Origin: Naegleria gruberi | Taxonomy: Eukaryota | DNA: 64,000 nucleotides | Strand: one strand, 5' to 3' | Assembly: GCA_000004985.1 (NCBI GenBank) | Contig: GG738861.1 | Shown: in pieces, positions 1-56,969 of the stretch | How the letters are laid out: the number at the start of each line of letters is the position of its first letter | Position numbering within the stretch: the first letter of the stretch is position 1 | Notes under the pieces: generated by a model | Told to the model about the DNA's origin: nothing | What the model saw: the letters and a program-made list of their open reading frames with translations, nothing else | Databases searched by the model: none | Position numbers and translations under genes: made by a program

Positions 1-555
1 ACCCAAACCCAAACCCAAACCCAAACCCAAACCCAAACCCAAACCCAAACCCAAACCCAAACCCAAACCCAAACCCAAACCCAAACCCAACCACCCAAAC
101 CCAAACCCAAACCCAAACCCAAACCCAAACCCAAACCCAAACCCAAACCCAAACCCAAACCCAAACCCAAACCCAAACCCAAACCCAAACCCAAACCCAA
201 ACCCAAACCCAAACACAAACCCAAACCCAAACCCAAACCCAAACCCAAACCCAAACCCAAACCCAAACCCAAACCCAAACCCAAACCCAAACCCAAACCC
301 AAACCAAAACCCAAACCCAAACCCAAACCCAAACCCAAACCCAAACCCAAACCCAAACCCAAACCCAAACACAAACCCAAACCCAAACCCAAACCCAAAC
401 CCAAACCCAAACCCAAACCCAAACCCAAACCCAAACCCAAACCCAAACCCAAACCCAAACCCAAACCCAAACCCAAACCCAAACCCAAACCCAAACCCAA
501 ACCCAAACCCAAACCCAAACCCAAACCCAAACCCAAACCCAAACCCAAACCCAAT
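1..555. repeat. Telomeric repeat array (CCCAAA)n, G-strand TTTGGG
   Basis: About 92 tandem hexamers run from the window edge, with four variant units (near 86-99 CCAACCACCC, 214 CACAAA, 304 CCAAAA, 371 CACAAA). The C-rich strand reads 5'->3' at the left edge, as expected for a genuine left chromosome end. Confidence 0.9.
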
Positions 556-16100: not shown

Positions 16101-19100
16101 ACATGGTACATGTGATGACTATGGTTTCTGTACTTGTTTCCAAGACGAAACTAACGGTTATTGGAATGGAACTAATTGTAATACTTGCAATGATGGATTT
16201 TATGGAGAAGATTGCATGACTCAATTGTCCAATGTACATTTCAATAATGAAGGAAATGGATTACTTTTCCAAATGACCTCTCCAAATCATTTCACATCCT
16301 TAAATGTTGATTGTAACAATTTATTAGATTCTTCAAGTATTTCCTCATTTGGTTCAAATGTAGTTTGTAGATATTCTAATAAGACATCCAATGATTTTAT
16401 TATTGAATTGGGAACTGATAATTCTATTCAAGTTGATCAAGAAATTTTATTGAATAGAAATGTGTTTAATAGAAACAAATTAGGAAATGATTATCAATCA
16501 TTCAAAATTGGAAATGCTGAAAATCCCATTCCACCAACAATTTTAATTTCTCAAAAAACAACATATTCAAGTTGTGAAAATATTCTATTGGATGCAAGTG
16601 AAAGTTATTCCACAGATGGAAAACAAATTTCCTATAAATGGGAAATTGTATCTTCCAACATGATGACACTTCCAAACAATAATTCAAGCAAACTGTCAAT
16701 CACCTATGACAGTATAAATGCTGGAAGTCATACTTTCAAACTGACAACTACAAGCCAAAGTTTGAAAACATCCTCATCCAAGCAAATCACATTCCAAAAG
16801 TTGAATTATGCAACACCTGTCATTTCTATTGAAGGAAGTGACAGCCTTTCACTTTCAACAAGCTCATTGCCTTTGATTGTAAGAAAATTAATCACCTTAC
16901 CTTCTTGTTTACCTTCAAAATCTGAAATTATTGTAAAATGGGAATATTTGAGTGGAACTGGAATGGAATATCAAGTTGACTCTACNNNNNNNNNNNNNNN
17001 NNNNNNNNNNNNNNNNNNNNNNNNNNNNNNNNNNNGATGGTTTGGAGCTGATTGTTCAATTCATTCATGTAATGGAACAAGCTCTCAAGATTTACAAAAT
17101 GTTTGTAATGGAGGAAGAGGTCAATGTATTGACACTGATATTTGCTCATGTAATGAAACATGGACAGGTCAATTCTGTGAAATTCCTAAATGTTTTGGAT
17201 GGAATTCAAGTGATAATTCAGTTTGTTCAACTCATGGTCAATGTATTAATGCTAACACTTGTCAGTTGTAATAAGGGATGGTTTGGTAGTAACTGCTCAA
17301 TTCATTCATGTAATGGAACTAGTTCACAAGATGTGCAAAACGTTTGTAATGGAGGAAATGGTCAGTGCATTGGAACAGATTTGTGTTTGTGTAACCAAAA
17401 TTGGGCTGGTCAGTTCTGTACTATTCCTAAATGTTATGGCGTTATTTCTACAGACGCTACAGTTTGCTCTACTCATGGTAACTGTACTGATATTAATACT
17501 TGCCAATGTAATACAGGTTGGTTTGGTCCATTATGTAGTATTCACTCCTGCAATGGAACTAGTTCACAAGATTTAAAACACGTCTGCAATGGTGGTAATG
17601 GAGTATGCATTCAAATGGATAAGTGTGATTGTAAATCTGGTTGGACAGGCCAGTTCTGTGAAATTCCGAAGTGTTTTGGTTTAGCTTCAACTGATAAAAA
17701 AGTGTGTGCTGGTCATGGAGGTTGCATGAGCTCTGATAAATGCTCTTGTAATAATGGATGGTTTGGAGCTGATTGTTCAATTCATTCATGTAATGGAACA
17801 AGCTCTCAAGATTTACAAAATGTTTGTAATGGAGGAAGAGGTCAATGTATTGACACTGATATTTGCTCATGTAATGAAACATGGACAGGTCAATTCTGTG
17901 AAATTCCTAAATGTTTTGGATGGAATTCAAGTGATATTTCAGTTTGTTCAACTCATGGTCAATGTATTAATGCTAACACTTGTAGTTGTAATAAGGGATG
18001 GTTTGGAGCTGATTGTTCAATTCATTCATGTAATGGAACAAGTTCACAAGATGAGCAAATCGTTTGTACTAATGGCAATGGTAAATGTGTATCTACAGAT
18101 ATGTGTTTATGCAATCAATATTGGACTGGACAATTCTGTGAAATTCCAAAGTGTTTTGGATTACCAGCAAACGATTCAAATGTATGTGCTGGTCATGGTA
18201 AATGTCTCTCCCCTGATGTTTGTTCTTGTAATCCTAAATGGTTTGGGGCTAAGTGTAATTTCCCATCTTGTTTTGGAATTCCATTTTACAATTCTTCAGT
18301 TTGTTCCTCCCATGGCCAATGCATAACCTTGGACACATGCAAATGTCTAGATGGATATGATGGAGAAACTTGTTCCTCTCATTCATGCTTTGGTTTTAAA
18401 TCCAATAATGACTCGAGAGCTTGTACGAATGGTCAAGGAAAATGCACAGGTGCTAATCAATGTACTTGTTTGGAATCCGAAAGTGGAAGAGCAATAGGTC
18501 CACAATGTGAAACGATTTTATGTAAGGCAGGAGTTGATATGTGGTTACCACAAAAAGATCCAAAAGTTTGTTCTCAACATGGTATATGTAAATTCAACAT
18601 GTCAACTGTTGGATGTTTTTGTGAGGNNNNNNNNNNNNNNNNNNNNNNNNNNNNNNNNNNNNNNNNNNNNNNNNNNCCAAATGACAGCTAGACCACTAGT
18701 TGTTAACTTGATCCAAATTGAATCAACAATTGACCAAGTAATAATTGAGATTGAAGAAATTGATTCTGATTTGCAAACTATTCCATTCGAAAGAGAATGG
18801 TCCACCAATAATTTGAATAACAATGACAACATATTACAATATCTATCATCTATCAAGAATAATACATTAACAATTACAAAATCATTAGTGAACGGTGCTT
18901 CTCAATTCGACATTTCATTAAGGTCAAGTAAGGTTTCCAGATATTCCACTTCAACTCTCTCCATTTTATTCCCAGAATCTCCTGAACAAATTCCACCTTC
19001 AATAACACCAGCTAACTCGCCTCCATCAAAATTGAATAAGGGAACTTTATTAAGCGTACAAAGTATTGTTTCGAGTGCAAGTAACAATATTATTAGAGAA

Positions 19101-21244: not shown

Positions 21245-21585
21245 ATGTTTCCACAACAAGCTCCACGGATTGTGGTAGAGATAAAACTTGGTAACACAGT
21301 TGCTCAATTGTTTCCAGATGGTAGCTTGAGTAATGGTTCAACCAGTATTACTGATTTCAGCGCAGTTGCACTAAACAAGCAAAACAAGCAAGTATGGGGG
21401 TTTGAAAATGACAAAGTTAAAATATTGTGCAATCAAAACCACGTTTGTAGTTATGGTCAAGTCAACCACTTGATAACAGGCAAGGGATTAAATAGGCTTC
21501 GTTCTCTTTACAATCTCGTAATAACAAAATATCTCCAACAACAGCCAAACATCACCGTTCCCAGAACCAATGCTGGTGACACCAN
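21245..21585 (+). CDS. 5' partial CDS of a hypothetical protein, interrupted by a 1020-N gap
   Basis: An ATG-started open frame of 113 codons runs into the gap. No recognisable domain. Confidence 0.3.
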
Positions 21586-22605
21586 NNNNNNNNNNNNNNN
21601 NNNNNNNNNNNNNNNNNNNNNNNNNNNNNNNNNNNNNNNNNNNNNNNNNNNNNNNNNNNNNNNNNNNNNNNNNNNNNNNNNNNNNNNNNNNNNNNNNNNN
21701 NNNNNNNNNNNNNNNNNNNNNNNNNNNNNNNNNNNNNNNNNNNNNNNNNNNNNNNNNNNNNNNNNNNNNNNNNNNNNNNNNNNNNNNNNNNNNNNNNNNN
21801 NNNNNNNNNNNNNNNNNNNNNNNNNNNNNNNNNNNNNNNNNNNNNNNNNNNNNNNNNNNNNNNNNNNNNNNNNNNNNNNNNNNNNNNNNNNNNNNNNNNN
21901 NNNNNNNNNNNNNNNNNNNNNNNNNNNNNNNNNNNNNNNNNNNNNNNNNNNNNNNNNNNNNNNNNNNNNNNNNNNNNNNNNNNNNNNNNNNNNNNNNNNN
22001 NNNNNNNNNNNNNNNNNNNNNNNNNNNNNNNNNNNNNNNNNNNNNNNNNNNNNNNNNNNNNNNNNNNNNNNNNNNNNNNNNNNNNNNNNNNNNNNNNNNN
22101 NNNNNNNNNNNNNNNNNNNNNNNNNNNNNNNNNNNNNNNNNNNNNNNNNNNNNNNNNNNNNNNNNNNNNNNNNNNNNNNNNNNNNNNNNNNNNNNNNNNN
22201 NNNNNNNNNNNNNNNNNNNNNNNNNNNNNNNNNNNNNNNNNNNNNNNNNNNNNNNNNNNNNNNNNNNNNNNNNNNNNNNNNNNNNNNNNNNNNNNNNNNN
22301 NNNNNNNNNNNNNNNNNNNNNNNNNNNNNNNNNNNNNNNNNNNNNNNNNNNNNNNNNNNNNNNNNNNNNNNNNNNNNNNNNNNNNNNNNNNNNNNNNNNN
22401 NNNNNNNNNNNNNNNNNNNNNNNNNNNNNNNNNNNNNNNNNNNNNNNNNNNNNNNNNNNNNNNNNNNNNNNNNNNNNNNNNNNNNNNNNNNNNNNNNNNN
22501 NNNNNNNNNNNNNNNNNNNNNNNNNNNNNNNNNNNNNNNNNNNNNNNNNNNNNNNNNNNNNNNNNNNNNNNNNNNNNNNNNNNNNNNNNNNNNNNNNNNN
22601 NNNNN
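21586..22605. other. Large assembly gap (1020 N)
   Basis: N run. The ORFs predicted across it are artefacts. Confidence 0.95.
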
Positions 22606-23571
22606 ATAAGAGATTGGAGTAAGAGGTATCCGAAGGTTTGCAATACCAAACTCATTTAATGGTTTTGTGAAATAATAAAATTATTATTATTCGGGTCTCT
22701 TCAAAAAAAAATCCTTTACAATGTTATTAGCACCAGAGCCTGCTAAACCTCAGGATGATTGGTTTATTGATGAATGTTTACTTATGAATATTGGCAATCA
22801 ACGACCGAAATATATCTTTCAAACTAAAGAGGGAGATGACATCATTTGGGAAACATTGTTCTTTAATTTCGTTGATGAGCCAAACGTTTAAATATCAAAC
22901 TCTTTCAATGATGGATACAATTACAAAAGATACACAGCAGAGGTGGTGGAAGTGGGAGACTTTGCCAAGAAAAGGGACGACTCTAATGATTGGGCTTTGT
23001 TGAGACTTGTGACTGATGATTTCACAGAAGATTTGAACAATACAGAGTACTTCATTCCTTCTCCAATTAGAACACGTCAAAGACGAAGATGATATTCCAG
23101 ATATCTACACCACGTTAATGATTGGTTTCTTTACAAGAGGTGCCTCAAAAGGAGATCTAAGAGAAACTCAAAGGGAATTGATATTGAAGATGTTTGGAAA
23201 ATTATTCCTGAAGGTATGGCAGTTTCCTTTGGTTGGACTGTACCCTATCCATAATTGTGGAAGTACAGCCAGCTGCTCTGGAGGCCCTTTACTCAAATGT
23301 AGAATCCAAATTAAAGAGCTTGTAGATATTCTGAACCAAAAACCATCTGTTCAGCCTTATTTCCTTATTCGCAAGTAGTTTCATCTCTAGAAGAATCATG
23401 GCTCTCCACAGTGGTGGTGATAACTATTACAAAATAAATAGAAATCCAAAACTTGAAATATTTAAGAGAAATTAGAGCTTGGAATTTTCCAAAAGCAAAA
23501 GCAGATAATTGATTGAAATAAGTACTATGAAATATTGAATGAAGTGTTTATATCGATATTAGTATGGATTT

Positions 23572-26500: not shown

Positions 26501-28425
26501 CCATTCAAACACTTGGCACAATTACTGGAAGCATCAAAGTTTCCATAACAAGTACATGAGCCATCATTATTACAGTAACCTTTAGAGGAACAATTACTAA
26601 CACTATTACAAGTAATTGAGCAACTGGAACCAACAAATCCACTAGCACATTGATCACAATATGTACCAACAAAGTTACCTTCACAAACACATTTCAAATT
26701 AACACAATTACCTCTGGAATTACAAGTTTGAACTCTATCACAAACTGGAGTGTTACAATTAGCTCCTGAATAATCAAGTGAGCAGCTTGAACAAGATTTA
26801 CCATCATTGTAATTAATTGGACATGAACACTTATTAGGAGCTGAACAAATACCACGAGATGAACAAACACTAGAGCTTGACTTGTCAATTCCATAACAGC
26901 TAAACGTTTGACAAGCTGTACCATTATAACCTTCAGAACAATGACAGATATTTGGAGCAATACATGAACCCTTTCCAGAACAAACTCTATTATCGGTAGC
27001 ACTAATTTCAAAACAAACGGGAATATCACAATTATCACCAACAAAACCATCAACACATTTAGAACAAAACTTGGATGAATCAAAGTTACCATTACAAGAA
27101 CAAACATCCTTTGAAACACATGAACCTCTATACGAACATCCTCCTTGAGATTCACTCAATCCATTACAAGTAGTGTATTGACATCTATCACCAGTGTAAC
27201 CACTATTACATTCACAAGTATTTGGGGCAGTACAATTACCTTGTTTGTTACAACCAGATGTACCTGTTTGATTGTTACAAAGTGGAATAGTACAATCACT
27301 ACCAGTATATCCACTACCACAAACCATAACACTACACTGAGAACCAGTAAAACCTGGATAACAATCACATTGATCTTTTCCTATACATTTACCCTTACTT
27401 GAACAAACAGATGAAGAATTACTCAAAGTATTAAAACATCTTGTTTCAGAACAAGATGGACCTTCCCAACCACTCTTACATGAACATTGATTTAGTGATG
27501 AACAGTTACCATTAGATGAACAAACACTTGATTGATTGGCCAAAATACCAAAACATGAAGTAATTTCACACAACTTGCCATAGAATCCACTATTACATTG
27601 GCAAGTATTTGGACCAACACATTGACCATTTCTTGAACAAACAGTTTGATTGGAGTTGGTTAAACCAGAACAAGAATATGTTTGACATTCAGAACCAATG
27701 TAACCACTCTTACATAAACAGCTATCAACAGAAACACAAGTTCCTGATCCAGAACAAACAGATGAATCAGTAAAATTCTTTCCAAAACATTGATGAATCT
27801 GGCATTCTAATCCACTGTATCCATTATTACATTGACACATATCTTGAGAAATACAAGTACCTTGATTACAAGCTTCAGCTCTTGGCTTAGTGAAACATGT
27901 GATATTCTTTGAGACACAAGTATTTGGAGCAATACATGTATCGTATTGTCCACAGGATTGAGTTTCGTTAGCCAAATAATTATTGCAAATTGGCATGTTA
28001 CAAACACCAGCAGGTCCATAACCTGATTTACATTCGCACTTGTCAAAATCACTGCAGATACCTTTCGAAAAACAAACTTGAGGTGATTGAGAATCGATGC
28101 CATTACAAGTTGTAAAAGAACAATTGTCTCCGTGGTAATTTGTTGAGCAGATACAATCATCGAGACTAGAACATGAACCATGGGATGAACAAACCTTGGA
28201 ATCGTTAGCTGGAGTACCATAACAGGAAGGAATTTCACAGAATTTTCCAATAAATCCATTAACACATATACAACCGCCATCCAGACATGTTCCATTACCA
28301 TTACAGATATTTTCCAAATGAGTAGATCCACATTTAACTGGTTCTGGTTGTGGGGTTTCCGTTGTTGTTTCATTACAGAATGTTCCATTGATATTTGAGT
28401 TACAAATACAGACACCGTTCAACAA
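23572..28425 (-). CDS. C-terminal ~1600 aa of a giant surface glycoprotein: Cys-repeat and EGF-like modules, long Ser/Thr-rich region, C-terminal GPI-anchor-like hydrophobic signal
   Basis: The ORF begins inside a 43-aa repeat unit (CICNSNINGTFCNETTTETPQPEPVKCGST...), so it is not a real N-terminus. It ends ...SARVNNVAMISFSVSLLVSIMMCLLML, which is GPI-signal-like. It is contiguous with 28510..31428 except for two 1-nt homopolymer deletions. Confidence 0.7.
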   Translation of the reverse strand: MLNGVCICNSNINGTFCNETTTETPQPEPVKCGSTHLENICNGNGTCLDGGCICVNGFIGKFCEIPSCYGTPANDSKVCSSHGSCSSLDDCICSTNYHGDNCSFTTCNGIDSQSPQVCFSKGICSDFDKCECKSGYGPAGVCNMPICNNYLANETQSCGQYDTCIAPNTCVSKNITCFTKPRAEACNQGTCISQDMCQCNNGYSGLECQIHQCFGKNFTDSSVCSGSGTCVSVDSCLCKSGYIGSECQTYSCSGLTNSNQTVCSRNGQCVGPNTCQCNSGFYGKLCEITSCFGILANQSSVCSSNGNCSSLNQCSCKSGWEGPSCSETRCFNTLSNSSSVCSSKGKCIGKDQCDCYPGFTGSQCSVMVCGSGYTGSDCTIPLCNNQTGTSGCNKQGNCTAPNTCECNSGYTGDRCQYTTCNGLSESQGGCSYRGSCVSKDVCSCNGNFDSSKFCSKCVDGFVGDNCDIPVCFEISATDNRVCSGKGSCIAPNICHCSEGYNGTACQTFSCYGIDKSSSSVCSSRGICSAPNKCSCPINYNDGKSCSSCSLDYSGANCNTPVCDRVQTCNSRGNCVNLKCVCEGNFVGTYCDQCASGFVGSSCSITCNSVSNCSSKGYCNNDGSCTCYGNFDASSNCAKCLNGWFGSNCDFQINSNSFVFTSTGGSIIGEVKSSLLKQSDCSDVISSSDLSLIGSDAKCILNSATSSLEIILGTSANIVPGNSLRLFKFPGSAETLSVTVSSGTFVALPPSVNLVSDKSSVSKCDTLYLDASGSVSSDRRALLFSWYVTNGPTVGEMNALNTYLSGVKTSSAIVDFSSSSLSAISGGSFIIQVTVTTAFSKVATSSVTVNVVSNPVPTLSLSEGISVTYMIGSTIVLTPVIKFPKCYSGNYQTDYTYSVDTSSASKSVVTPKSSNNLFAIGKSFTDINKEGDYYFILRAVSDNANDAFLPFKVTAVAQDLTIQFNISDITQSTQDSLDFSVAVVDPSSTSDSETVTITCFDIVNIKSCSSPNLNQRTFSTFLSAGEYKYTATVVKGSRSASTNLIVKAKSVPKNTLIRASITSNSDLSLVSPSSDLYLTYSSLEVLSSPTFFWFSDKFDLSSLTQTSSFIKIPKSLLSAGASYSISLNITDGSKNGVATTSVNVNSPPTRGIFEASPQSGVALSTLFELKCGNGWTDSQLPLTYQFFYYDDISSSWTALTERTETRSTRIKLPSSSSSQLRLKVAVYDSKLAFTESEISVAVTQPTTTQAVNSIESTAKETPTLASVSAVIKVVSSIAGATAEQKAEIAKLTSNMILSYLDNQAKAQSVASENTNSASSKLSMISSGTSSLEYIVDDIISKMITNLAQTAANAASSDEVKLATELLTKAKEAADKFYRFIVAKGVSKRSFSNSDITNIQATYDSLSSALVKDTVADLPANYIVANQTTTYSRKVNIATLNNLQDIINGNKFKMAAKFSDLVSNYKTLILKVKSSSGGVTNSVSDALDISLAEKSAVTVSSSSSIAELTFSTSKDITMARSVSAYDVYCQVYNSATNNYQLSTSCSVISKTSNSVTVSVSSTGKYLLTAQPKAIPTPVVSPKSSPAPFIPKVSARVNNVAMISFSVSLLVSIMMCLLML

Positions 28426-28429
28426 GTTC

Positions 28430-31250
28430 CATTATAATAGCAATTATTTTCTTCAACGGTTGATCCACAGTTTAATTGGTTCAGTGGAACAGAGTATTCT
28501 GGTGTGCTTTCATTGCAAATGTTCCGTTAACGTTGTATTGCAAATACAAATACCATTTACACATGTTCCGTTACCATAACAGGCATTTTCTTCCAATGTT
28601 TCACCACATTTAATTGGTTCAGGATGTGGGATAACTGGTTCTGTATTTGTTTCATTGCAATATGTACCATTAATGTTTGAATTACAAATACAGACACCAT
28701 TAATGCAAGTACCATTTCCATAACAAATATTTTCATATTCAGTGATACCACATTTAACAACTGGTTCTGGTTGAGGTGTTGGAGTTTCAGAAGTCTCATT
28801 ACAGAAGGTTCCATTAACGTTTGTATTACAAATACAAATACCATTTACGCATGTTCCATTTCCATAACAATTATTTTCCTCAATGGTTGTTCCACATTTA
28901 ATTGGTTCAGGTTGTGGAATTATTGGTTCAACAATGGTTTCATTACAGAAAGTACCGTTTGAGCCACCTAAACATGAACAAATACCATTCAAACAAGTTC
29001 CATTTCCATAACAATTATTTTCTTCAACGGTTGATCCACATTTAATTGGTTCAGGTTGGGGAATTGGAGTTTCTGGAGTTGTTTCATTACAGAATGTTCC
29101 GTTTACATTAGAGTTGCAAATACAAATACCATTTACACATGTTCCGTTACCATAACAGGCATTTTCTTCCAATGTTTCACCACATTTAATTGGTTCAGGA
29201 TGTGGAGTAACAGGTGCTGATGTTGTTTCATTACAATATGTACCATTAATGTTTGAATTACAAATACAGACACCATTCAAACAAGTTCCATTTCCATAAC
29301 AATTATTCTCATCTTCAGTGAAACCACATTTAACAACAGGTTCTGGTTGAGGCTCATGACTTGTTTCATTACAGAAGGTTCCATTAACGTTGGTAATACA
29401 AACACAAATACCATTCATGCAAGTTCCATTTCCATAACAATTATTTTCTTCAATGGTTGATCCACATTTAACTGGTTCAGTTGGAATTTGAGGTTCTGAA
29501 GCAGTTGTTTCATTACAGTATGTTCCGTTCATACCCTCAACACAGATGCACAATCCATCAAGACATGTGCCGTTACCATAACAATTGCTTTCTTCCTGAG
29601 TTGTACCACAAATAATTGGTTCAGGTTGTGGAGAATCAGAATTTGTTTCATTGCAATATGTACCATTTACGTTTGAATTACAAGCACAGACACCATTGAT
29701 GCAAGTTCCATTTCCGTAACAGTTGTTTTCTTCCATGGTTGATCCACATTTAACTGGTTCAGGATGAGGAATTGGAGTTTCAGGAGTTGTTTCATTACAG
29801 AATGTTCCGTTTACCTTTGAATCACAAACACAAATACCATTTAAACAGGTTCCATTACCGTAACAGTTATTTTCTTCCAATGTTTCACCACATTTGACAG
29901 GTTCTGGTTCTGGAGTAACTGGTTCTGTAGTTGTTTCATTGCAGAATGTGCCATTAACATTCTCAAAACATACACACAAGCCATCAACACAAGTACCATT
30001 TCCAAAACAGTTATTTTCTTCTTCGGTCGAACCACATTTAACTACTGGTTCTGGTTGAGTTGGATCTTGAGTTGTTTCGTTACAGAATGTACCATTCACG
30101 CCAATAAAACAAATACAAACACCCTCAATGCATGTACCGTTACCATAACAAGTATTTTCTTCTATAGTTTCACCACATTTGACAGGCTCAGGAACAACTG
30201 GATCTGGAGATGTTTCGTTACAGAATGTACCATTAATATTCTCGTTGCAAACACACAAACCATCAACACATGTTCCATTTCCGTAGCAGCTATTTTCTTC
30301 TGTTGTTTCGCCACATTTAATTGGTTGAGTTGGAACTTGAGGTTCAGTAGGATTAGTTTCGTTACAGAATGTACCATTAACATCTTGATTACAAACACAG
30401 AATCCATTTACACAACTTCCATTGTTGTAGCAATTATTCTCTTCCAAAGTTTCACCACATTGTAAAGGTTGTGGAATTTCAGGTTCTATATTTGATTCAT
30501 TACAGAATGTACCATTTGCGCCTTCTTTGCAAATACAGGAGCCACCAATACAAGTGCCATTACCATAGCAGTTATTTTCATCTTCTGTAAAACCACATTT
30601 AACTGGCTCTGGTTGAGTTGGGATTTCAGGAGCTGTTTCGTTACAGAAAGTACCATTAGCGCCTTCAATACAAACACACAGTCCATCAAGACATGTTCCA
30701 TTACCATAACAATTACTTTCTTCCTGAGTTGTACCACAAATAATTGGTTCAGGTTGGCTGGGAACTGGACTGGTTTCGTTACAGAATGTACCATTACTAC
30801 CTTCATTGCAAGTACAAAAACCATTCTCACACGTACCATTGCCATAACAATTATTCTCTTCTTCTGTAGTACCACATTTAACCAATTCTGGTTGTGGTTC
30901 CATGCTGAAGGTTTCATTACAAAATGTACCATTAACATTCTCGTTACAAATACACAAACCATCGACACATGTACCATTACCATAACAAATATTTTCATCT
31001 TCTGTGAAACCACAGTTAACTGGTTGAGTAGGGACTTGTGGTTCTTGAGTTGTTTCATTACAGAATGTACCATTCACACCTTCAATACATATGCAGAAAC
31101 CATCGACACATGTACCATTACCATAACAATTTTGTTCTTCCAATGTTTCACCACAAGTGGTAATGGTATCATTACAGAATAAACCAATGAAACCTTCTGA
31201 ACATTGACAAACACCACGAGTACAATTACCATTAGAATAGCAAGATTGTT
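28430..31250. repeat. Tandem array of about 24 x 129-bp coding repeats (43-aa Cys module)
   Basis: The periodicity is visible in both the nucleotide and the protein sequence. Units are roughly 70-95% identical. Confidence 0.85.
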
Positions 31251-32739: not shown

Positions 32740-34310
32740 ATAAAGTAAAGTATTCAGATTGATTTTAATTTTACATAATAGTTTTATTACAAACAAGTTT
32801 TTGTTGTTTGTTTGGGAGAATTGAATTGTTTCAAAATCAATAGATTTAGAAACACTTTCTGTGGACAATACCTGGACCGGCATCCTCATATTCTTCCTTG
32901 GTGATCCACATTTGTTGGAAAGTGGACAATGAAGCCAAGATGGAACCACCAATCCAGACAGAGTACTTTCTTTCAGGTGGAGCAACAACCTTAATCTTCA
33001 TGGAAGCTGGAGCCATAGCAGTCAATTCCTTGGTCATTCTTTCAGCAATACCTTCGAACATAGTAGTACCACCAGACAAGACAACGTTACCGTACAAGTC
33101 CTTTCTGATATCAATATCACATTTACCAATAGAGTTGAAAGTAGTTTCATGAACACCAGCAGCTTCCATACCAATGAAGTTTGGTTGGAACAAAACTTCT
33201 GGACATCTGAATCTTTCATTACCAACAGTGATAACATTACCGTCTGGCAATTCGTATGACTTTTCAACAGATGATGATTCAGCAGCAACCTTCATTTCAG
33301 CTTCGAAATCCAAAGCAATATAACAGAGCTTTTCCTTAATATCTCTGACGATTTCTCTTTCAGCAGTAGTATTGAATGAGTAACCTCTTTCCATCAAAAT
33401 CTTCATCAAGTAATCAGTCAAATCACGGCCAGCCAAATCCAATCTCAAAATGGCGTGTGGCAAAGCATAACCTTCATAAATTGGAACAGTGTGGGAAACA
33501 CCATCACCAGAGTCCAAAACAATACCAGTGGTTCTACCAGAAGCATACAAGGACAAGACAGCTTGAATAGCGACATACATAGCTGGAACTGAGAAGGTTT
33601 CAAACATAATTTGAGTCATCTTTTCTCTGTTTGCCTTTGGATTCAAAGGAGCTTCAGTCAACAAGACTGGGTGTTCTTCTGGAGCAACTCTCAATTCATT
33701 GTAGAAAGTGTGATGCCAGATCTTTTCCATATCGTCCCAATTGGTAACAATACCGTGTTCAATTGGATACTTCAAAGTCAAAATACCTCTCTTTGATTGA
33801 GCTTCATCACCAACATAGGCATCCTTATTACCCATACCAACCATAATGGACTTTTGCTTTGGTCTACCAATAATTGAAGGGAAGACAGCTCTTGGAGCAT
33901 CATCACCAGCAAAACCAGCTTTACACATACCAGAACCGTTATCGACAACGAGGGCTTGAACGTCTTCACAGAATGACATTTTATAGATTATTTGAATGGA
34001 TTTGTTTTTTTTGATTTTTAATTGATGATTTGTGTGTTAAAAAAATATTTAAATGAAAAATTAATGAAAGAATGATTGATGTGATTGATGGCAAGTCAAA
34101 TTGAAGTTTTAAAAAACTATTTTAGAGGTCATTTTTTAAATGTGGAAAGTCAAGTGAAGAAGAACAACTTTACAATATGACTTTTCATTCTTTTCATTCA
34201 ACACATCATCAAAATTACTAGCAATCAACTGTAAAATTTAACACATCAAACATTGCTTTGTCAACTTACTGTAATTTTCAACGTGGAAAAAATTCATCAA
34301 GTTTGAATGA
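32740..34310. repeat. Left arm (~1.57 kb) of an inverted duplication containing an actin gene
   Basis: This arm is the reverse complement of 40160..41730. The flanks match (for example ctattttagaggtcattttttaaatgtggaaagtcaagtgaagaagaac) and the 3' flank matches for ~100 bp past the stop. Confidence 0.85.
32846..33979 (-). CDS. act: Actin (377 aa, intronless)
   Basis: Sequence begins [41 protein letters not shown]...IVHRKCF. It is a canonical conventional actin, closest to amoebozoan actins. Confidence 0.95.
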
Positions 34311-38180: not shown

Positions 38181-38949
38181 AATCTCACCGACACGGAATT
38201 CACTAGACAAGTTTTCATTATTTTATGAAACAGAAAGGATAACCTTCTTAATGTTTCAAAAGATGCTAATCAAATAATTGGAAATGTTATAATCTATCAA
38301 CATTTCATTCTGTGGATCATCTTCTGAAATTCTGAATTGAATAGCAATGGAGCTTTGTTTAAAAGATAACTTGATAAGATTTGTTAATTAATTATAATTT
38401 ACAATTTTTCATGACTAACGTAATTCTCAACAATAACATACCAATTTGAAATTTGGTAAAACTGCAAATAGAATATTTTATTGGAAAGAAAAATAAAGGA
38501 GTCTAACCTTTGACTATTTTCTCGATGGAATTAGGAGATAAGGTTTTGAAAATTGGCAGATATGTTGATTACATACCAGTCTTCATATTATGAAAAAAAT
38601 TTTAAATTAAATAGTGAAGATAAAGTTAAAAATTAATCTCGAGTGCCGGGAATTGAATTTCCTAATTTGGAAGATGACTTCAACAACCAAATAACAATAA
38701 TAAATTGGGTTATTAAATTAATGTTTATTAAATAGTGACCGTTAGGTCACTGATTGTTAATTAATTATTGATGATGATTTGTTGTTGAACAGATACTAAC
38801 CACCACCGATTGTTGTCATAATATTAAACACAGAGTAATCACCGTGTCGCCAAATTCCTTGATAATTATTCATAACTGTAACTTCTTGATCAAAAGGCAC
38901 TCGAGCAATAAACAATTTGATTTCACACAGCCAAAACTCTCGTTCATAC

Positions 38950-39092
38950 TTTGGGTACCGGGAATGAAATTTCCAAATAAGGAATGACCGATATCATTCA
39001 ACTATTACTAACTCATACTCACACTAACAAAACAAATTGAACCCGGGTCGCCAGAGTGACAGTCTGGAATGCTACCACTATACCACACCCGA
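38950..39092 (-). tRNA. tRNA-Asp(GUC) gene interrupted in the T-loop by a 66-bp insertion (probably non-functional)
   Basis: The 5' part at 39092..39035 reads TCGGGTG TG GTATAGTGGTA GCAT T CCAGA CTGTCAC TCTGG CGAC CCGGG TTCAATT. After the insertion, 38968..38950 supplies TTCATT CCCGG TACCCAA A. The acceptor stem pairs 6 of 7. Confidence 0.6.
38969..39034 (-). mobile_element. 66-bp insertion in the tRNA-Asp T-loop; a short member of the family that also interrupts tRNA-Gly
   Basis: The insert is TGTTTTGTTAGTGTGAGTATGAGTTAGTAATAGTTGAATGATATCGGTCATTCCTTATTTGGAAAT. Its first ~40 nt and its GGAAAT 3' end match the ends of the 1334-bp Gly insertion. Confidence 0.5.
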
Positions 39093-40159: not shown

Positions 40160-41730
40160 TTTATCAAACTTGATGAATTTTTTCCATGTTGAAAATTACA
40201 GTAAGTTGTTAATTGCAATGTTTGCTGATTGTTTGCTCGTAATGTTTGATGATGTGTTGAATGAAAATAATGAAAAGTCATATTGTAAAGTTGTTCTTCT
40301 TCACTTGACTTTCCACATTTAAAAAATGACCTCTAAAATAGTTTTTTAAACTTCAATTTGACTTGCCATCAATCACATCAATCATTCTATCATTAATTTT
40401 TCATTTAAATATTTTTTTAACACACAAATCATCAATTAAAAATCAAAAAAAAACAAATCCATTCAAATTCTATAAAAATGTCATTCTGTGAAGACGTTCA
40501 AGCCCTCGTTGTCGATAACGGTTCTGGTATGTGTAAAGCTGGTTTTGCTGGTGATGATGCTCCAAGAGCTGTCTTCCCTTCAATTATTGGTAGACCAAAG
40601 CAAAAGTCCATTATGGTTGGTATGGGTAATAAGGATGCCTATGTTGGTGATGAAGCTCAATCCAAGAGAGGTATTTTAACTTTGAAGTATCCAATTGAAC
40701 ACGGTATTGTTACCAATTGGGATGATATGGAAAAGATCTGGCATCACACTTTCTACAATGAATTGAGAGTTGCTCCAGAAGAACATCCAGTCTTGTTGAC
40801 TGAAGCTCCTTTGAATCCAAAGGCCAATAGAGAAAAGATGACTCAAATTATGTTTGAAACTTTCTCAGTTCCAGCTATGTACGTCGCTATTCAAGCTGTC
40901 TTGTCCTTGTATGCTTCTGGTAGAACTACTGGTATTGTTTTGGACTCTGGTGATGGTGTTTCCCACACTGTTCCTATCTATGAAGGTTATGCTTTGCCAC
41001 ACGCCATCTTGAGATTGGATTTGGCTGGTCGTGATTTGACTGATTATTTGATGAAGATTTTGATGGAAAGAGGTTATTCATTCAATACTACTGCTGAAAG
41101 AGAAATTGTCAGAGATATTAAGGAAAAGCTCTGTTATATTGCTTTGGATTTCGAAGCTGAAATGAAGGTTGCTGCTGAATCATCATCAGTTGAAAAGTCA
41201 TACGAATTGCCAGATGGTAATGTTATCACTGTTGGTAACGAAAGATTCAGATGTCCAGAAGTCTTGTTCCAACCAAACTTCATTGGTATGGAAGCTGCTG
41301 GTGTTCATGAAACTACTTTCAACTCCATTGGTAAATGTGATATTGACATCAGAAAGGACTTGTACGGTAACGTTGTCTTGTCTGGTGGTACTACTATGTT
41401 CGAAGGTATTGCTGAAAGAATGACCAAGGAATTGACTGCTATGGCTCCTGCTTCAATGAAGATTAAGGTTGTTGCTCCACCTGAAAGAAAGTACTCTGTC
41501 TGGATTGGTGGTTCCATCTTGGCTTCATTGTCCACTTTCCAACAAATGTGGATCACAAAGGAAGAATATGAGGATGCCGGTCCAGGTATTGTTCACAGAA
41601 AGTGTTTCTAAATCTATTGATTTTGAAACAATTCAATTCTCCCAAACAAACAACAAAAACTTGTTTGTAATAAAACTATTATGTAAAATTAAAATCAATC
41701 TGAATACTTTTTGTGTTGCGAAAGAGAAAT
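40160..41730. repeat. Right arm of the actin-containing inverted duplication
   Basis: Reverse complement of 32740..34310. Confidence 0.85.
40478..41611 (+). CDS. act: Actin (377 aa), second copy, protein identical to the 32846..33979 copy
   Basis: The protein is identical. Off-frame ORFs differ at a few residues, so the nucleotide differences are synonymous. Confidence 0.95.
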
Positions 41731-48813: not shown

Positions 48814-50001
48814 TTAAGGTTGAAAACAATCGAAAAATCGTTTCTTTCTCTGCAATGCTTCACATCCATATTCCTCATAATCCGCCATAGCAACAGCCAT
48901 TTCTGCGAAGGACTCAAGGGAACCAGCAATACTTCCTCCAATCCATGATGAGTAACGTCTCTCAGGAGCTGCCACCACACTTAATCTCAATGATTTTGGT
49001 ATTAATTGTGCCAAATCATGTCTAATTCTGTCTGCCAGTCCAGGAAGGAGCGAAACTCCTCCCGAAATGATAATATTATTGTAGAGACCGTAGCGAGTGT
49101 CAATGTTTGATGCTTGCATGCTGTCTTGAATAATATCAACAATTCCTGGATATTCAGAATTAATTATTTGAGGATTGAAGAGAATTTCATTACATGTGAA
49201 ATGTTCATGAGATAGATTTAACACTTGACCATCAGGTAGCTCATACTGTTGATGTCCTTCACTAGACATTCGACTATTTTCATATTCTCTATCATAATCC
49301 TCTGCAACACGACCAATTTTCCTAATCATTTGATCCACAATTGACCTATTCCCTTCCAAACAAATTCCATGATTTTCACTCAACATTTTAATCATGTAAT
49401 CTGTAACATTGGCTCCTCCAAAATTAATCCTCCTCGTTGTATTATTATCTACAAATCCCCAATAACATGGCACTATCTGAATCACACCCTCTCCCAAGCA
49501 TAAACTCAGTGCCGTCGTTGTTCCACATGCATAGACAGACATGAGAGGTTGTGGAGAGCAGGCAAACGATCCAAATCCATACTTTTCAAAGAATAATTGC
49601 ATTAAATGATTCTTCTGTGAGGAGGGTTGTAAAATTGAATCAATGAATAGTATTGATCTCGATTCATTGTCTGAAATTTCACATTCAGAATTTTGAGTAT
49701 TTTTTGAGAGAATTTCTTGAAAGGTATAATCAAGTAAAATTTCCATCAAATCCCAATTTTTAATAATTCCATTTCGGATGGGATAGTTTAGATTGAGAAT
49801 TCCTTCTCGTTTAATTGCCTGATCACCAATATAACCTGATTTCATAGTGCAATCACTAATCATGATGGGTGAATATTTAGGTGTTCCGATACAGGAAGGA
49901 AAGACACAGCTGGGTGCATCTTCTCCTGCTATGCCTGCATAGAATGTGCTTGAACCGCAATCTAAAACGAATACTTCTGGCCACTCATCACTGAATGACA
50001 T
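48814..50001 (-). CDS. Divergent actin-related / actin-like protein (395 aa)
   Basis: The actin fold is recognisable (VLDCGSSTFYAGIAGEDAPSCVFPSCIG, LPDGQV, ISGG, SSWIGGSI) but it has insertions and is only ~30% identical to actin. Confidence 0.7.
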   Translation of the reverse strand: MSFSDEWPEVFVLDCGSSTFYAGIAGEDAPSCVFPSCIGTPKYSPIMISDCTMKSGYIGDQAIKREGILNLNYPIRNGIIKNWDLMEILLDYTFQEILSKNTQNSECEISDNESRSILFIDSILQPSSQKNHLMQLFFEKYGFGSFACSPQPLMSVYACGTTTALSLCLGEGVIQIVPCYWGFVDNNTTRRINFGGANVTDYMIKMLSENHGICLEGNRSIVDQMIRKIGRVAEDYDREYENSRMSSEGHQQYELPDGQVLNLSHEHFTCNEILFNPQIINSEYPGIVDIIQDSMQASNIDTRYGLYNNIIISGGVSLLPGLADRIRHDLAQLIPKSLRLSVVAAPERRYSSWIGGSIAGSLESFAEMAVAMADYEEYGCEALQRKKRFFDCFQP

Positions 50002-55251: not shown

Positions 55252-56663
55252 TGCGTCGACCGGGAATTGAAATTTCCTTTTTTGGAATTCATTTAACTTT
55301 TAATTTTATGATGAAATTATGAATTATTTATTTTAATATTATTCATGATGTGAAACATCATGTTGAATTCTGTTCATTATTTTTAATTCATGATGTGAAA
55401 CATCATGTTGAATTATTAACAAATGTTGTTCTTCAATTTTTCATTGAATGTTGTTCTTTCAATGAATGTTGGAATAAGTGTCCAGTATATGATAGAATTG
55501 TTAATACAAGTAAGTTTTCTATTATTTTATATTTATTAATTGACTCACGGGTAATGGAATTTCCTTTTTTGTAAATCATCATGATTGATGATGATTGATG
55601 ATGATTAAATAATAATAATTTATTATTTTATAGATGATGGTACAATTAGATTTGTTAGTACATATCCTAATTGTATTTTAAAGAAAGAAAATTCACCAAC
55701 TAAAATTGAAGATATTATTCGTGAATATGAAGATGTAAAAGTTGTTTTAAATGAATTAGGTAAATCAACAACAAAAATTTATTCATCAGATACAACAAAA
55801 CATATGAATTTCCTAAAAGTTTTATTTATTTATGTAATGGTAATATTAAATATGATCAATCATTAAATATATCACAAGGAATTTATACAATTAAAATTCA
55901 AGATGATGAACATGATCACAAATATTATTATTTATTCGGAAGAGGTTTATTATTTCTATCAATTACATTACAAATGATTCCAACATTTAGTTTAAACAAG
56001 TATTATTATGAAATTGTATTGAATGATTTAAGTAACACATATTTTGATAAGAATGAAATTATTCAATATAAAATTGAAATTTTGCCATCAAATATTATTC
56101 AACAATATTCTAAACGAAAGTTTCTTGTTAGAAAAGATAGTCAAAAGAACTCAAGATTTATTACATATCAACCTGACGCTCAATCACCATCAAAGAAAAC
56201 AAAGAAGAATAACATTATTGAAAGTGATATTGAAGATTTCGATTGCAATATTAAAGATATTGATGATTGGGTATAGGGAAACGGAATTTCCTAATTGGGA
56301 ATGTCATCACACAATAAATTAAATTTATTATTTATTCATTGATGTTCACAAACTGTGAATTAACACATTACATGATGAAACAATTCAAACATTTACTCAA
56401 ACTTTAAACATTAACCATCGGGTAACGGATTTTAATACATGTACTAGTATGTTTATTAATTGGTCGACGCACATAAATTTAAATAAACAAAATTAACAAG
56501 ATTTTAAACAAAATCCTACATAGAGTTGGAGAACGGGAAATGAAATTCCCAAATTGAAATTGAGAAACAACTATTCATTTCACAATAATTCATACTATCA
56601 AAATGAATTGAACCCGGGTCACGGCGATGGCAACGCCGTATTCTACCACTAAACCATCGACGC
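55252..56663 (-). tRNA. tRNA-Gly(GCC) gene split by a 1334-bp insertion in the T-loop
   Basis: The 5' part at 56663..56606 reads GCGTCGA TG GTTT AGTGGTAG AATA C GGCG TTGCCAT CGCCG TGAC CCGGG TTCAATT. The 3' part at 55271..55252 reads TTCAATT CCCGG TCGACGC A. T-stem and acceptor are perfectly complementary, and TTCAATT is present at both junctions. Confidence 0.8.
55272..56605 (-). mobile_element. 1334-bp insertion in the tRNA-Gly T-loop, probably composite. Contains AT-rich ORFs and several internal 'GGAAAT + tRNA 3'-end-like' junction motifs
   Basis: It starts CATTTTGATAGTATGAATTATTGTGAAATGAATAGTTG..., similar to the Asp insert start, and ends ...CCAAAAAAGGAAAT next to the duplicated TTCAATT. 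There are no terminal inverted repeats. It carries a 100-aa ORF (55974..56276) and palindromic tcatgatgtgaaacatcatg direct repeats at 55343 and 55389. Confidence 0.55.
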
Positions 56664-56969
56664 TTCTTGTTAAGATATTAAGGTTCCTTAATTTAATATA
56701 AGGAATATCCAAAATGCTTAAAGTACAACACAACAAGAATTGAGTATTCGTTTGAACATGCTGTAAAATATTTCAAATTATGCTAAGATCATTTGATGTA
56801 TTTAATGCCATAGGGCATTGAGAGCCATCATTTGAAGATTCAAATAGTATGTTCTTGATTTTATCTGATAAAGCACAAGAATAACATTTCATCCACTAAA
56901 TTTTATAAATGTTGACTGTGTTACATAATAGTATTTAATTATTATTGAAATGAGGATAACAATAAATTA

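Follow-up and report, generated by a model that had tools for sequence, protein, structure and literature searches.

To our knowledge, few insertions in eukaryotes are strictly specific for a site within tRNA genes; those on record come mainly from the Dada transposons, none of which is known to target the T loop. Dada elements are eukaryotic transposons, found in protists such as Perkinsus, which occupy a fixed site in multicopy small-RNA genes including those for tRNAs (Kojima and Jurka, 2013, PMC3706591; Kojima, 2022, PMC8869645). They generate target duplications of 6–7 bp, lack terminal inverted repeats and carry short internal repeats with further copies in the target gene; derivatives with internal deletions have just the ends in common, and flanks from other tRNA genes have been seen (PMC3706591; PMC8869645). 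Transposons specific for small-RNA genes persist where the target genes are many (PMC3706591), and the roughly 924 tRNA genes of Naegleria gruberi (PMC2888827) provide such an abundance of targets. Attachment within the T loop (class II sublocation) is described for mycobacteriophage Ms6 (PMC1762012), for elements in the Islander database (PMC4383910) and for the Sulfolobus SSV viruses, which use tRNA-Asp(GUC) (PMC4090602). These prokaryotic and archaeal integrative elements bring their own copy of the tRNA 3' end, the displaced 3' fragment marks their far end, and serial integrations leave arrays of partial 3' ends.

In the 64-kb window analyzed here, a stretch of subtelomeric nuclear DNA of N. 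gruberi, a tRNA-Asp(GUC) gene and a tRNA-Gly(GCC) gene are each interrupted in the T loop by related sequences. Literature searches returned no description of T-loop insertions in Naegleria. What parts the two halves of the Asp gene looks like an undescribed mobile element specific for tRNA genes rather than a 66-base intron. We see about an even chance that both genes hold non-autonomous, composite copies of a mobile family that targets the T loop.

Anatomy of the Interrupted tRNA Genes

The break in the tRNA-Asp gene lies after CCGGG-TTCAATT, as a first-pass annotation of the sequence had proposed, with nucleotides 1–60 of the tRNA running from 39092 to 39035 on the minus strand (Table 1). 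The same annotation took TTCATT-CCCGG-TACCCAA-A for the 3' end of the gene and delimited the gene as 38950–39092. Its end at 39092 is correct, whereas 38950 is the end of a pseudo 3' half: the segment has a C2·A71 mismatch, places A73 where tRNA-Asp has G73 and retains a loop remnant of 6 nt, and it is a mimic internal to the family, as TACCCAA is found again in the Gly pseudo-half p2 and Gly p1 can be aligned with the whole segment. The true 3' part of the Asp gene lies at 38657..38638, and the insertion (39034..38658) is therefore 377 bp long, not 66 bp, in addition to the duplicated 7-nt T loop. The 66-nt stretch is the left unit, U1, of this composite. The notion of a 66-bp minimal element survives in part: a unit U of 61–66 nt recurs as a module with a conserved start and an R-unit end, and a minimal element may exist in this form, although U alone is not what separates the Asp halves.

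When the outer halves are joined, the Asp gene regains seven of seven acceptor pairs (one of them G·U) and G73 and is called as tRNA-Asp by ARAGORN, while the Gly halves yield a valid tRNA-Gly with A73. The sole flaw of the outer halves at the two loci is an A12·C23 mismatch in the Asp D stem. On the window itself, ARAGORN found one "tRNA-Gly" (56593..56664); this call was rejected, as its false 3' end is borrowed from the insertion. The outer halves are thus near flawless and the internal pseudo-halves decayed, a pattern which fits either an insertion of recent date or selection acting on a split gene that works.

Table 1. Features of the two interrupted tRNA genes (positions in the 64-kb window).
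Feature	Position	Strand	Sequence, basis or remark
tRNA-Asp(GUC) 5' part, tRNA positions 1–60	39035..39092	-	Direct reading; last 7 nt (39041..39035) are the left T-loop copy TTCAATT
Asp unit U1, 66 nt	38969..39034	-	Homologue of Gly U1 (61 nt)
Asp pseudo 3' half p1	38950..38968	-	TTCATT CCCGG TACCCAA A; mispair, A73, homology to Gly pseudo-halves
Terminator-like TTTT, 14 nt past Asp p1	38933..38936	-	Placed as behind a real tRNA gene; same distance at Gly p1
Asp host-matched block	38896..38906	-	G+CTCGAGTGCC; TTTT run directly after
Asp variable interior ("cargo")	38682..38895	-	No ORF of note; perfect 7-bp hairpin at 38751..38734
Asp terminal R-unit	38658..38681	-	GAAGTCATCTTCC-AAATTA-GGAAA; right end of a second, degenerate U
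tRNA-Asp true 3' part	38638..38657	-	Right T-loop copy TTCAATT, CCCGG CACTCGA, G73; read from sequence, ARAGORN on joined sequence
TTTTT, likely RNA polymerase III terminator of the Asp gene	38628..38632	-	Read from sequence
tRNA-Gly(GCC) 5' part, tRNA positions 1–60	56606..56663	-	Ends CCGGG TTCAATT; sequence and joined tRNA call
Gly insertion, 1334 bp	55272..56605	-	Sequence reading and profiles
Gly unit U1, 61 nt	56605..56545	-	
Gly pseudo 3' half p1	56544..56525	-	
Gly host-matched block	56472..56462	-	G+TGCGTCGACC
Gly R-unit plus p2	56305..56266	-	
Gly R-unit plus p3	55572..55539	-	
Gly terminal R-unit	ends at 55272	-	
tRNA-Gly true 3' part	55252..55271	-	TTCAATT CCCGG TCGACGC A; TTTT runs downstream
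ORF-like stretch in Gly insertion, antisense to the tRNA	55634..56276	+	One frameshift, no start codon

Target Site and Shared Modules

The 20-nt T arm GACCCGGG-TTCAATT-CCCGG is identical in the two tRNA genes, and its 7-base loop TTCAATT stands at both junctions of both insertions. The presence of this heptamer at both junctions of two tRNA genes argues for site-specific insertion by recognition of the T arm, in agreement with the earlier proposal that related sequences breaking two tRNA genes at the same nucleotide point to site specificity. The start motif YRTTTTGWTAGTRTGA occurs without mismatch at two places in the 64 kb, each directly after the GGTTCAATT of a tRNA 5' part; when up to two mismatches are allowed, about 1.7 matches are expected in 64 kb, and the weak matches seen elsewhere (4718, 5559, 16617, 16728, 36543 and others) lie within coding sequence and were dismissed as chance. 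Likewise, a profile built on the left module common to both insertions matches nowhere in the 64 kb but at the two junctions (E about 1e-32 and 3e-30). The left modules of the Asp and Gly insertions are only about 65% identical (BLAST) and hence do not descend recently from a single master element.

The Asp U1 starts with TGTTTTGTTAGTGTGA, contains AATAGTTG and ends with TTTGGAAAT; it bears TTTT at insertion positions 3–6, and its end is the first R-unit (TCATTCC-TTATTT-GGAAAT). Six R-units are present in the window, all within the two loci and in one orientation, and each is followed by a T-loop-like heptamer and a CCCGG-like pentamer resembling a tRNA 3' half. The R-unit profile also matches Asp p1. 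Modules composed of a T-loop relic, U, a T loop and a 3' half number two in the Asp and four in the Gly locus. In front of the right-hand U, a remnant of the T loop and of the 5' strand of the T stem scores z = 3.9 in Gly (1 of 300 shuffles) and is weak in Asp (z = 1.7). Together with its trailer, p1 aligns between the two loci, and TTTT follows it at 13–14 nt in both. Asp p1 departs from the true Asp 3' strand by no more than four transitions and one deleted base; p1 retains six of seven acceptor pairs with Asp and three of seven with Gly, and its discriminator base is wrong. Sense-strand runs of four or more T number three in the Asp and 14 in the Gly insertion, the first beginning at insert position 3; the terminators of the genes themselves are runs of T5 and T4. 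At the Asp right end, the GGAA of the terminal R-unit can pair with U59, U60, C61 and C62 of the following exon, and the junction hairpin of this locus is held only through G·U pairs on the sense strand.

The ORF-like stretch of the Gly insertion looks like an orphan pseudogene, with no Pfam family and no homologue among the 5.8 billion proteins searched. A candidate upstream exon for it lies at about 55350..55509. No sizeable ORF of the Gly insert matches a Pfam family, no homologues and no integrase gene were found in it, and the window contains no transposase, integrase or reverse transcriptase, nor any empty site or autonomous copy. A neighboring 546-aa protein has a database match only to itself. 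Terminal inverted repeats are absent from the insertions, searches of the inserts for direct or inverted copies of the tRNA 5' parts gave chance-level 8-mers only, and no complements of the pseudo 3' halves were found. Rfam, including its group I and group II intron and ribozyme models, returned no match for either locus at the gathering score or at E values up to 5, and the conserved fold of the left module is negligible (-3.8 kcal/mol). A metagenome scan with the left-end pattern gave 32 matches, none of them preceded by a tRNA 5' part, and a viral-contig scan with the right junction gave seven unrelated matches without tRNAs.

A Block Complementary to the Host tRNA

The most interesting part of the insertions is a host-matched block, which simple cut-and-paste insertion does not predict. 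At insertion position 130 in Asp and 135 in Gly, lies a 10-mer in perfect reverse complementarity to positions 64–73 of its own host tRNA (GGCACTCGAG in tRNA-Asp), and the G in front of the block would pair with C74 of the added CCA. Shuffled sequences reached 10 nt in 7 of 3000 cases for Asp and 9 of 3000 for Gly, and controls in which the block was slid were 20–35% paired. Between the two loci, six of the ten pairs are changed on both sides. The closing helix formed by the block is present in the minimum-energy folds of both loci. The block was also considered as a relic of a 5' acceptor strand. This origin was rejected, as bases complementary to G64, G65 and the discriminator border the block in both loci and the Asp block has A rather than G at position 4. 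We infer that the block would act at the nucleic-acid level, either in the choice of target or in end processing of the element's transcript.

Comparison With Described Systems and Proposed Mechanism

With the Dada transposons, the Naegleria insertions share a fixed site in a small-RNA gene, a 7-bp duplication (TTCAATT) and the lack of inverted repeats; the internal repeats, deleted derivatives and foreign tRNA flanks of Dada elements are further points of likeness. However, the Dada sites in tRNA genes are positions 8–13 or the anticodon arm (CTGCG/TAGCTC-type), whereas the Naegleria site is the T loop, positions 54–60. Furthermore, the published Dada-tA termini AAGGAAGGGGCG...GATGCTGCAG are unrelated to those described here, Naegleria is absent from the published host list, and the window holds no Dada transposase. 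The T-loop integrative elements exchange strands within the 7-bp T loop flanked by the symmetric T stem and, like the Naegleria insertions, have the loop at both ends; the arrangement CCGGG-TTCAATT...TTCAATT-CCCGG found at both loci is the one by which crossovers of the T-loop class are recognized (PMC1762012). They differ in that the Naegleria host is a eukaryotic nucleus and that the 3'-half mimic p1, parted from the 5' part by U1, fails to restore the gene. In addition, the mimic mismatches the host acceptor strand, and the inverted, host-matched block has no counterpart among them.

Similar inserts at non-canonical positions of different tRNA genes, the T arm included, are also known as transposed bulge-helix-bulge introns in Thermoproteales (Fujishima et al., 2010, as cited in PMC4090602), and as ectopic introns in Cyanidioschyzon merolae (PMC3728597; PMC9602550). 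Similar introns in different tRNA genes imply spread between the genes at the DNA level. These introns are short and possess a proper bulge-helix-bulge, whereas the Naegleria inserts are 377–1334 nt long, lack a canonical motif and contain many TTTT runs. The Dictyostelium elements TRE5, TRE3 and DGLT-A and the yeast elements Ty1 and Ty3 likewise use tRNA genes as safe landing sites in gene-dense genomes; in contrast to the Naegleria insertions, they land tens of bases up- or downstream through the RNA polymerase III machinery and never at a fixed nucleotide inside the gene (PMC5006619; PMC5911963).

For a T-loop-specific mobile family, the target would be the symmetric T arm CCGGG-TTCAATT-CCCGG, with the 7-bp loop duplicated upon insertion, either by a 7-bp staggered cut or by strand exchange within a 7-bp overlap as carried out by tyrosine recombinases. 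The putative building block is the unit U of about 61–66 bp, with YRTTTTGWTAGTRTGA as its start and the R-unit TCATTCC-N6-GGAAAT as its end. Each of the two insertions consists, in order, of U1, the relic 3' half of a tRNA together with a TTTT terminator (p1), variable DNA and a second U, as would be expected if two copies of U, or a bypassed right end, had taken with them the 3' half and flanking DNA of a former host gene. The block of 10–11 nt, about 130 nt from the left end, would pair with host tRNA positions 64–73(74) and, together with the GGAA of the R-unit, could fold the right part of the element and the displaced 3' exon into a minihelix resembling the acceptor stem and T arm. The anatomy, the loop duplication, the homology and the complementarity are observed; mobility, the class of enzyme and the role of the block are inferred from them. 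After only two bases of the insertion, RNA polymerase III would run into TTTT, and the interrupted Asp and Gly genes are most likely dead as tRNA genes. The lack of a canonical bulge-helix-bulge and the frequent sense-strand TTTT runs make ordinary tRNA-intron splicing unlikely at both loci.

Alternative Explanations

As a special case of such a family, the target may be chosen by base pairing, with an element RNA or DNA strand that carries the block pairing to the 3' acceptor/T-stem strand of one tRNA species and the T-loop mimic either marking the core or pairing with it. The choice of tRNA gene would thus be programmed by a 10-nt guide, with the T loop as common 7-bp exchange site, which would make the element a nuclear equivalent of the prokaryotic elements that depend on a guide; or else the pairing would make a working split tRNA gene. 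We consider this proposal unlikely. It accounts for the match of the block to its host at the same place of the element and the same tRNA positions in both loci, with the six differing positions always in step with the host. It would also suit the fact that the T arms are identical and the acceptor strand alone distinguishes Asp from Gly genes, and a divergence of about 35% between left modules is expected of old, separately specialized lineages, in which copies of the Asp type would be confined to Asp genes and those of the Gly type to Gly genes. Nevertheless, two loci only speak for it, these being the only copies known here, no enzyme is seen in the window, and the complementarity could equally act in cis after insertion. 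We know of no enzyme for base-pair-guided insertion of this kind into tRNA genes. Known guide systems (IS605/IS110, group II introns) pair next to the cut, whereas here the pairing begins 3 nt past the duplicated heptamer. Functional split or intron-containing genes, whose halves the tRNA splicing endonuclease and ligase would join at the RNA level, either in cis within a transcript that spans a very long T-loop intron or in trans between two separate transcripts, seem to us still less likely. Here, the conserved insert ends and the block would keep the halves together, and the sequence separating the outer halves is decayed throughout, whereas these halves themselves are intact and complement each other. 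The duplicated TTCAATT, in which AATT is self-complementary, lies beside the T stem and allows a helix, a 3-nt bulge, a 4-bp helix and a second 3-nt bulge to be drawn, the UUUU of the insert start lies opposite the GAAA of its end, and the Asp junction hairpin is kept only through G·U pairs, which form on the sense strand. Moreover, the 5' part with its TTTT would make a self-contained RNA polymerase III unit, and ectopic introns, T-arm ones included, are recorded in Cyanidioschyzon (PMC9602550; PMC3728597). In a canonical bulge-helix-bulge, however, the bulge of either strand is found on the 3' side of the 4-bp helix (PMC4090602), while the AAUU/AAUU version has its bulges 5' of the helix, a mirror topology; with the T stem as outer helix, only an intron at 59/60 fits, and U54–A57 (UUCA) would have to pair with UUCA. 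Cofolding of the junctions gave other, weak pairings. The inserts, at 377 and 1334 nt, contrast with the 11–129 nt of archaeal tRNA introns (PMC4090602), runs of T4 or longer are not depleted, a promoter for a separate 3' half is not evident, and the block pairs with the very strand needed for the acceptor stem, offering 10 bp against 7.

Decayed tandem arrays of tRNA genes, each with a U insertion, would require no recent movement, the intact 5' and 3' parts stemming from different copies after decay of the first copy's 3' half and the last copy's 5' half. The module repeats in one orientation at both loci, the close similarity of Asp p1 to the true Asp 3' strand and the subtelomeric position are in keeping with such arrays, yet we judge them improbable: neutral decay should strike all halves, whereas the outermost parts are perfect and matching; the inner units have no recognizable 5' halves in front; p1 and trailer of Asp align with Gly; and such arrays do not account for a host-matched block that stands at one and the same offset in the two loci. 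Least probable of all, in our estimate, are relics of tRNA-primed retroelements, in which the block would be a primer-binding site rewritten from the primer tRNA in each cycle. Complementary DNA with tRNA-derived ends would undergo recombination with the gene that encodes this tRNA, and the break in the T loop would reflect a stop of reverse transcriptase at m1A58. The block is indeed an antisense copy of the tRNA 3' strand, and its Asp version, with A opposite U69 where the tRNA 5' strand has G4, was thus copied from that 3' strand; in both loci the preceding G fits C74 of CCA and not the genomic trailer. Retroelements place their primer-binding site just downstream of the left module, as is the case for the block and the 130-nt left module here. 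In a comparison with 5'-TGG..., however, the bases in front of the block are TTG in Asp and ATG in Gly, of which only that opposite C74 would pair; C75 and A76 stay outside the complementarity, which leaves the primer 3' end unpaired, and the pairing stops at 64, not at 59. There are no long terminal repeats, as the right end repeats the R-unit only and not the 130-nt module, no reverse transcriptase remnant was detected, and the 7-bp duplication is identical in both loci.

Implications

If the T-loop-specific family is real and numerous in Naegleria, it would place a new target-specific element on record, and it would explain tRNA genes that are missed or mis-called by standard finders, as by ARAGORN here. 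The 10-nt block would in that case offer a testable instance of base-pair-guided target choice, or of tRNA mimicry at the RNA level, in a eukaryotic nucleus. The insertions also touch upon a long-standing idea, by which introns in tRNA genes, and split tRNA genes as well, arise from, or serve to defend against, elements which integrate into tRNA genes.

Boundaries of the split tRNA genes

The first-pass annotation had described a 66-bp element interrupting the tRNA-Asp(GUC) gene, and the sequence behind the 5′ part, TGTTTTGTTAGTGTGA...AATAGTTG...TTTGGAAAT (66 nt) and then TTCATT CCCGG TACCCAA A, matches that description exactly. Read as the 3′ end of tRNA-Asp, however, TTCATT-CCCGG-TACCCAA-A gives a C2·A71 mismatch, a discriminator A and a loop one base short. 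The heptamer TACCCAA is found again in p2, one of the tRNA-3′-half-like sequences (pseudo-halves p1–p3) inside the Gly insertion, and the Asp segment aligns with the p1 of that insertion. When the sequence was searched for what should pair with the Asp 5′ strand, the true 3′ strand was located further downstream, with GGAAA-TTCAATT ahead of it and G and TTTTT behind it; the 5′ part and this distal 3′ part together form a tRNA-Asp with seven of seven acceptor pairs (one G·U) and G73. The tRNA-Gly(GCC) gene is split in the same way. Since the true 3′ parts are the distal complements, the insertions measure 377 bp (Asp) and 1334 bp (Gly). The earlier observation is thus real, with its boundaries misread: the 66-nt stretch holds as a module of the family, but it is one part of a larger composite and not the whole insertion.

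The sole ARAGORN call in the window, “tRNA-Gly 56593..56664”, has a spurious 3′ end: the last 13 bases of this apparently complete tRNA-Gly(GCC) come from the insertion. Automatic annotation would therefore mask the split Gly gene.

Coordinates of the split tRNA genes, their insertions and associated features
Feature	Coordinates	Strand	Sequence or remark
tRNA-Asp(GUC) 5′ part	39092..39035	minus	TCGGGTGTGGTATAGTGGTAGCATTCCAGACTGTCACTCTGGCGACCCGGGTTCAATT; position 1 to T-loop end, read from sequence
Asp insertion, 377 bp	39034..38658	minus	TTCAATT at each junction
Asp host-matched block	38905..38896	minus	CTCGAGTGCC; insert position 130
tRNA-Asp true 3′ strand	38650..38639		CCCGGCACTCGA
tRNA-Gly(GCC) 5′ part	56663..56606	minus	same end CCGGGTTCAATT as Asp, then CATTTTGATAGTATGA...AATAGTTG
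Gly insertion, 1334 bp	56605..55272	minus	TTCAATT at each junction
Gly host-matched block	56471..56462	minus	TGCGTCGACC; insert position 135
Exact complement of Gly 5′ strand	55264..55253		CCCGGTCGACGC
Telomere-type repeat	1-554		very start of window; 92 tandem ACCCAA copies (98% matches), G strand TTGGGT

Genomic setting

Judged from its sequence content, the window is subtelomeric nuclear DNA of N. gruberi, since it encodes an actin identical to four N. gruberi entries (EFC36529 and others) and a neighbouring 546-aa protein with 100% identity to NAEGRDRAFT_79278, and starts with an ACCCAA array. As this telomere-type repeat opens the window, the split tRNA genes lie 39 and 56 kb from the chromosome end. 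The G+C content of the region is ~33%. No transposase, integrase or reverse transcriptase was found among the surrounding ORFs of the window, all of which are ordinary host genes.

Three ORFs of actin size or family lie within 17 kb (32846-33979, minus; 40478-41611, plus; 48814-50001, minus); that at 40478-41611 is the actin gene, accompanied by a second 377-aa actin-size ORF and one actin-family ORF. Rfam mir-3533 matches at 33089-33172 and 41285-41368 are false positives located within the two 377-aa ORFs. Between 20000 and 24000, G+C drops to just 25–26%, with long overlapping ORFs on both strands (21245-22655) without a Pfam family; this stretch may be low-complexity coding sequence or non-genic. 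Furthermore, long degenerate tandem repeats (28289-31155, 17036-18161, 14989-15447 and 7298-7830; periods of 138–426, 240 and 234 nt) lie within very large ORFs, which probably encode cysteine-rich repeat-domain surface proteins.

Shared architecture of the insertions

The Asp and Gly inserts resemble each other far beyond chance: their first 115–128 nt align with 65% identity, and the 16-nt start motif occurs without mismatch at these two junctions only in the window searched. A left-module profile built from both gave no further match in the window, and all statements about the family rest on these two loci. Each insert opens with a unit U (66 nt in Asp, 61 nt in Gly) that starts with YRTTTTGWTAGTRTGA and ends in the R-unit TCATTCC-N6-GGAAAT. 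The six R-units of the window all lie within the two loci in a single orientation, and behind each come a T-loop-like heptamer, a CCCGG-like pentamer and 7–8 more bases; these followers comprise the two true 3′ parts and four pseudo-halves, one p1 per locus plus the p2 and p3 of Gly. In both loci a TTTT run lies 13–14 nt past p1, placed where a genuine tRNA gene would have it. The R-unit on the right-hand side appears to close a second, degenerate U. In Gly, a relic of the 5′ strand of the T stem and of the loop lies ahead of it (z = 3.9); the signal in Asp is weak (z = 1.7). The insert interiors are AT-rich and variable; an antisense ORF-like stretch in Gly has a frameshift, lacks a start codon and yielded neither a family nor a homologue in Pfam and protein homology searches.

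A 29-nt exact direct repeat with a 45-nt period (55341-55414) overlaps the relic in Gly, and each copy forms the perfect hairpin ATGATGT-TTC-ACATCAT. One ACCCAA unit each occurs on the minus strand in Asp p1 (GGTACCCAAAG, 38950-38962) and Gly p2 (TATACCCAATC, 56266-56280); this identity with the telomere hexamer may be chance or a clue to origin. At the left junctions (minus strand, 39035-39022 in Asp, 56612-56590 in Gly), the T-loop AATT and first insert bases can form a hairpin with TRTGA of the start motif, with seven perfect pairs in Gly; four pairs survive in Asp only as G·U, which hints at RNA-level constraint on the sense strand.

A block matched to the host tRNA

Each insertion contains a 10-nt block that is the perfect reverse complement of positions 64–73 of its own host tRNA (G64, G65, the 3′ acceptor strand and the discriminator base), so that both blocks cover the same tRNA positions from the same place within the element. 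Each 10-mer is unique in the window, the tRNA 3′ part itself excepted, and a 10-nt match arose in 7 of 3000 (Asp) and 9 of 3000 (Gly) dinucleotide shuffles. Between the loci, six of the ten pairs are changed on both sides; slid controls gave 20–35% pairing. The Asp block carries A opposite U69, where the tRNA 5′ strand has G, and is bordered by the complements of G64, G65 and G73; it therefore represents the complement of the 3′ strand, and a stray 5′ strand is ruled out. No complementary partner block was found for the pseudo-halves of either locus. The base ahead of the block is G in both loci; it would find a partner in C74 of an added CCA but none in the genomic trailer. With a chance of about 1 in 16, this is weak evidence. 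Folding of the RNA between block and tRNA 3′ end predicts, at minimum energy, an 11-bp closing helix in both loci and, in Asp, pairing of the R-unit GGAA with U59 U60 C61 C62 into a T-arm-like hairpin beside it.

The block is not derivable from any simple transposition model, and several roles are conceivable. It could guide target choice, each lineage residing in the gene that its block specifies. Another option is pairing in cis, which would fold the right part of the element and the displaced 3′ exon into a mimic of the tRNA top half, on which RNase P, RNase Z or CCA addition could act. A degenerate primer-binding site is a further option, weakened because C75 and A76 would stay unpaired and terminal repeats are absent. 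The block could also be a component of a mechanism that joins split genes.

Splicing or site-specific insertion

Ordinary cis-splicing of the inserts appears unlikely on the strength of their structure, length, T runs and Rfam results. In the canonical bulge-helix-bulge (PMC4090602), the helix is 4 bp long and each strand carries a 3-nt bulge on the 3′ side of it. With the T stem as outer helix, the geometry permits a 59/60 intron only, in which UUCA must pair with UUCA. The duplicated loop can be drawn as helix-bulge-helix-bulge (CCGGG/UUC/AAUU against AAUU/CCCGG with UUC), but in this AAUU/AAUU drawing the bulges sit on the side of the helix opposite to the canonical one, and other weak pairings are preferred in cofolding. 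The inserts are 3 to 10 times as long as any archaeal tRNA intron, and sense-strand runs of T4 or longer are as frequent as A runs, the first beginning after just two insert bases. Runs of this kind, T5 and T4, also serve as the terminators of the genes themselves. An Rfam search of the loci found no group I or II intron or ribozyme. A trans-spliced split tRNA gene, less probable than insertion, would account for the intactness of exactly the outer halves.

Site-specific insertion at the DNA level, giving a composite of first U, p1, variable DNA and second U, has in our estimate about an even chance of being correct. It is suggested by interruption at one shared heptamer in two tRNA species whose T arms are identical, by the 7-bp duplication, by common ends that lack inverted repeats and by internal tRNA-3′-half relics with terminators. 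The interpretation of the first-pass annotation as site-specific insertion is supported. The order of first U, p1 with terminator, variable DNA and second U would be the expected product of two U copies; alternatively, a right end may have been bypassed, so that the 3′ half of an earlier host was carried along with its flank.

In its layout, with 5-bp arms and a 7-bp loop, the T arm corresponds to the classical core site of tyrosine recombinases, in which inverted arms surround the crossover. Prokaryotic class II integrases exchange strands in the T loop and supply their own tRNA 3′ end (PMC1762012, PMC4383910). Of the eukaryotic elements, Dada transposons share with these insertions a 6–7-bp duplication, the lack of inverted termini and specificity for small-RNA genes, but differ in target sites and termini (PMC3706591, PMC8869645). 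Scans of metagenomes and viral contigs gave chance matches only, and no description of such T-loop insertions in Naegleria was found in the literature searched. With ~924 tRNA genes (PMC2888827), N. gruberi offers ample space for such a parasite. The family appears to represent a new form of target-specific mobile DNA, in which the host-matched block is the one feature that could be new in kind.
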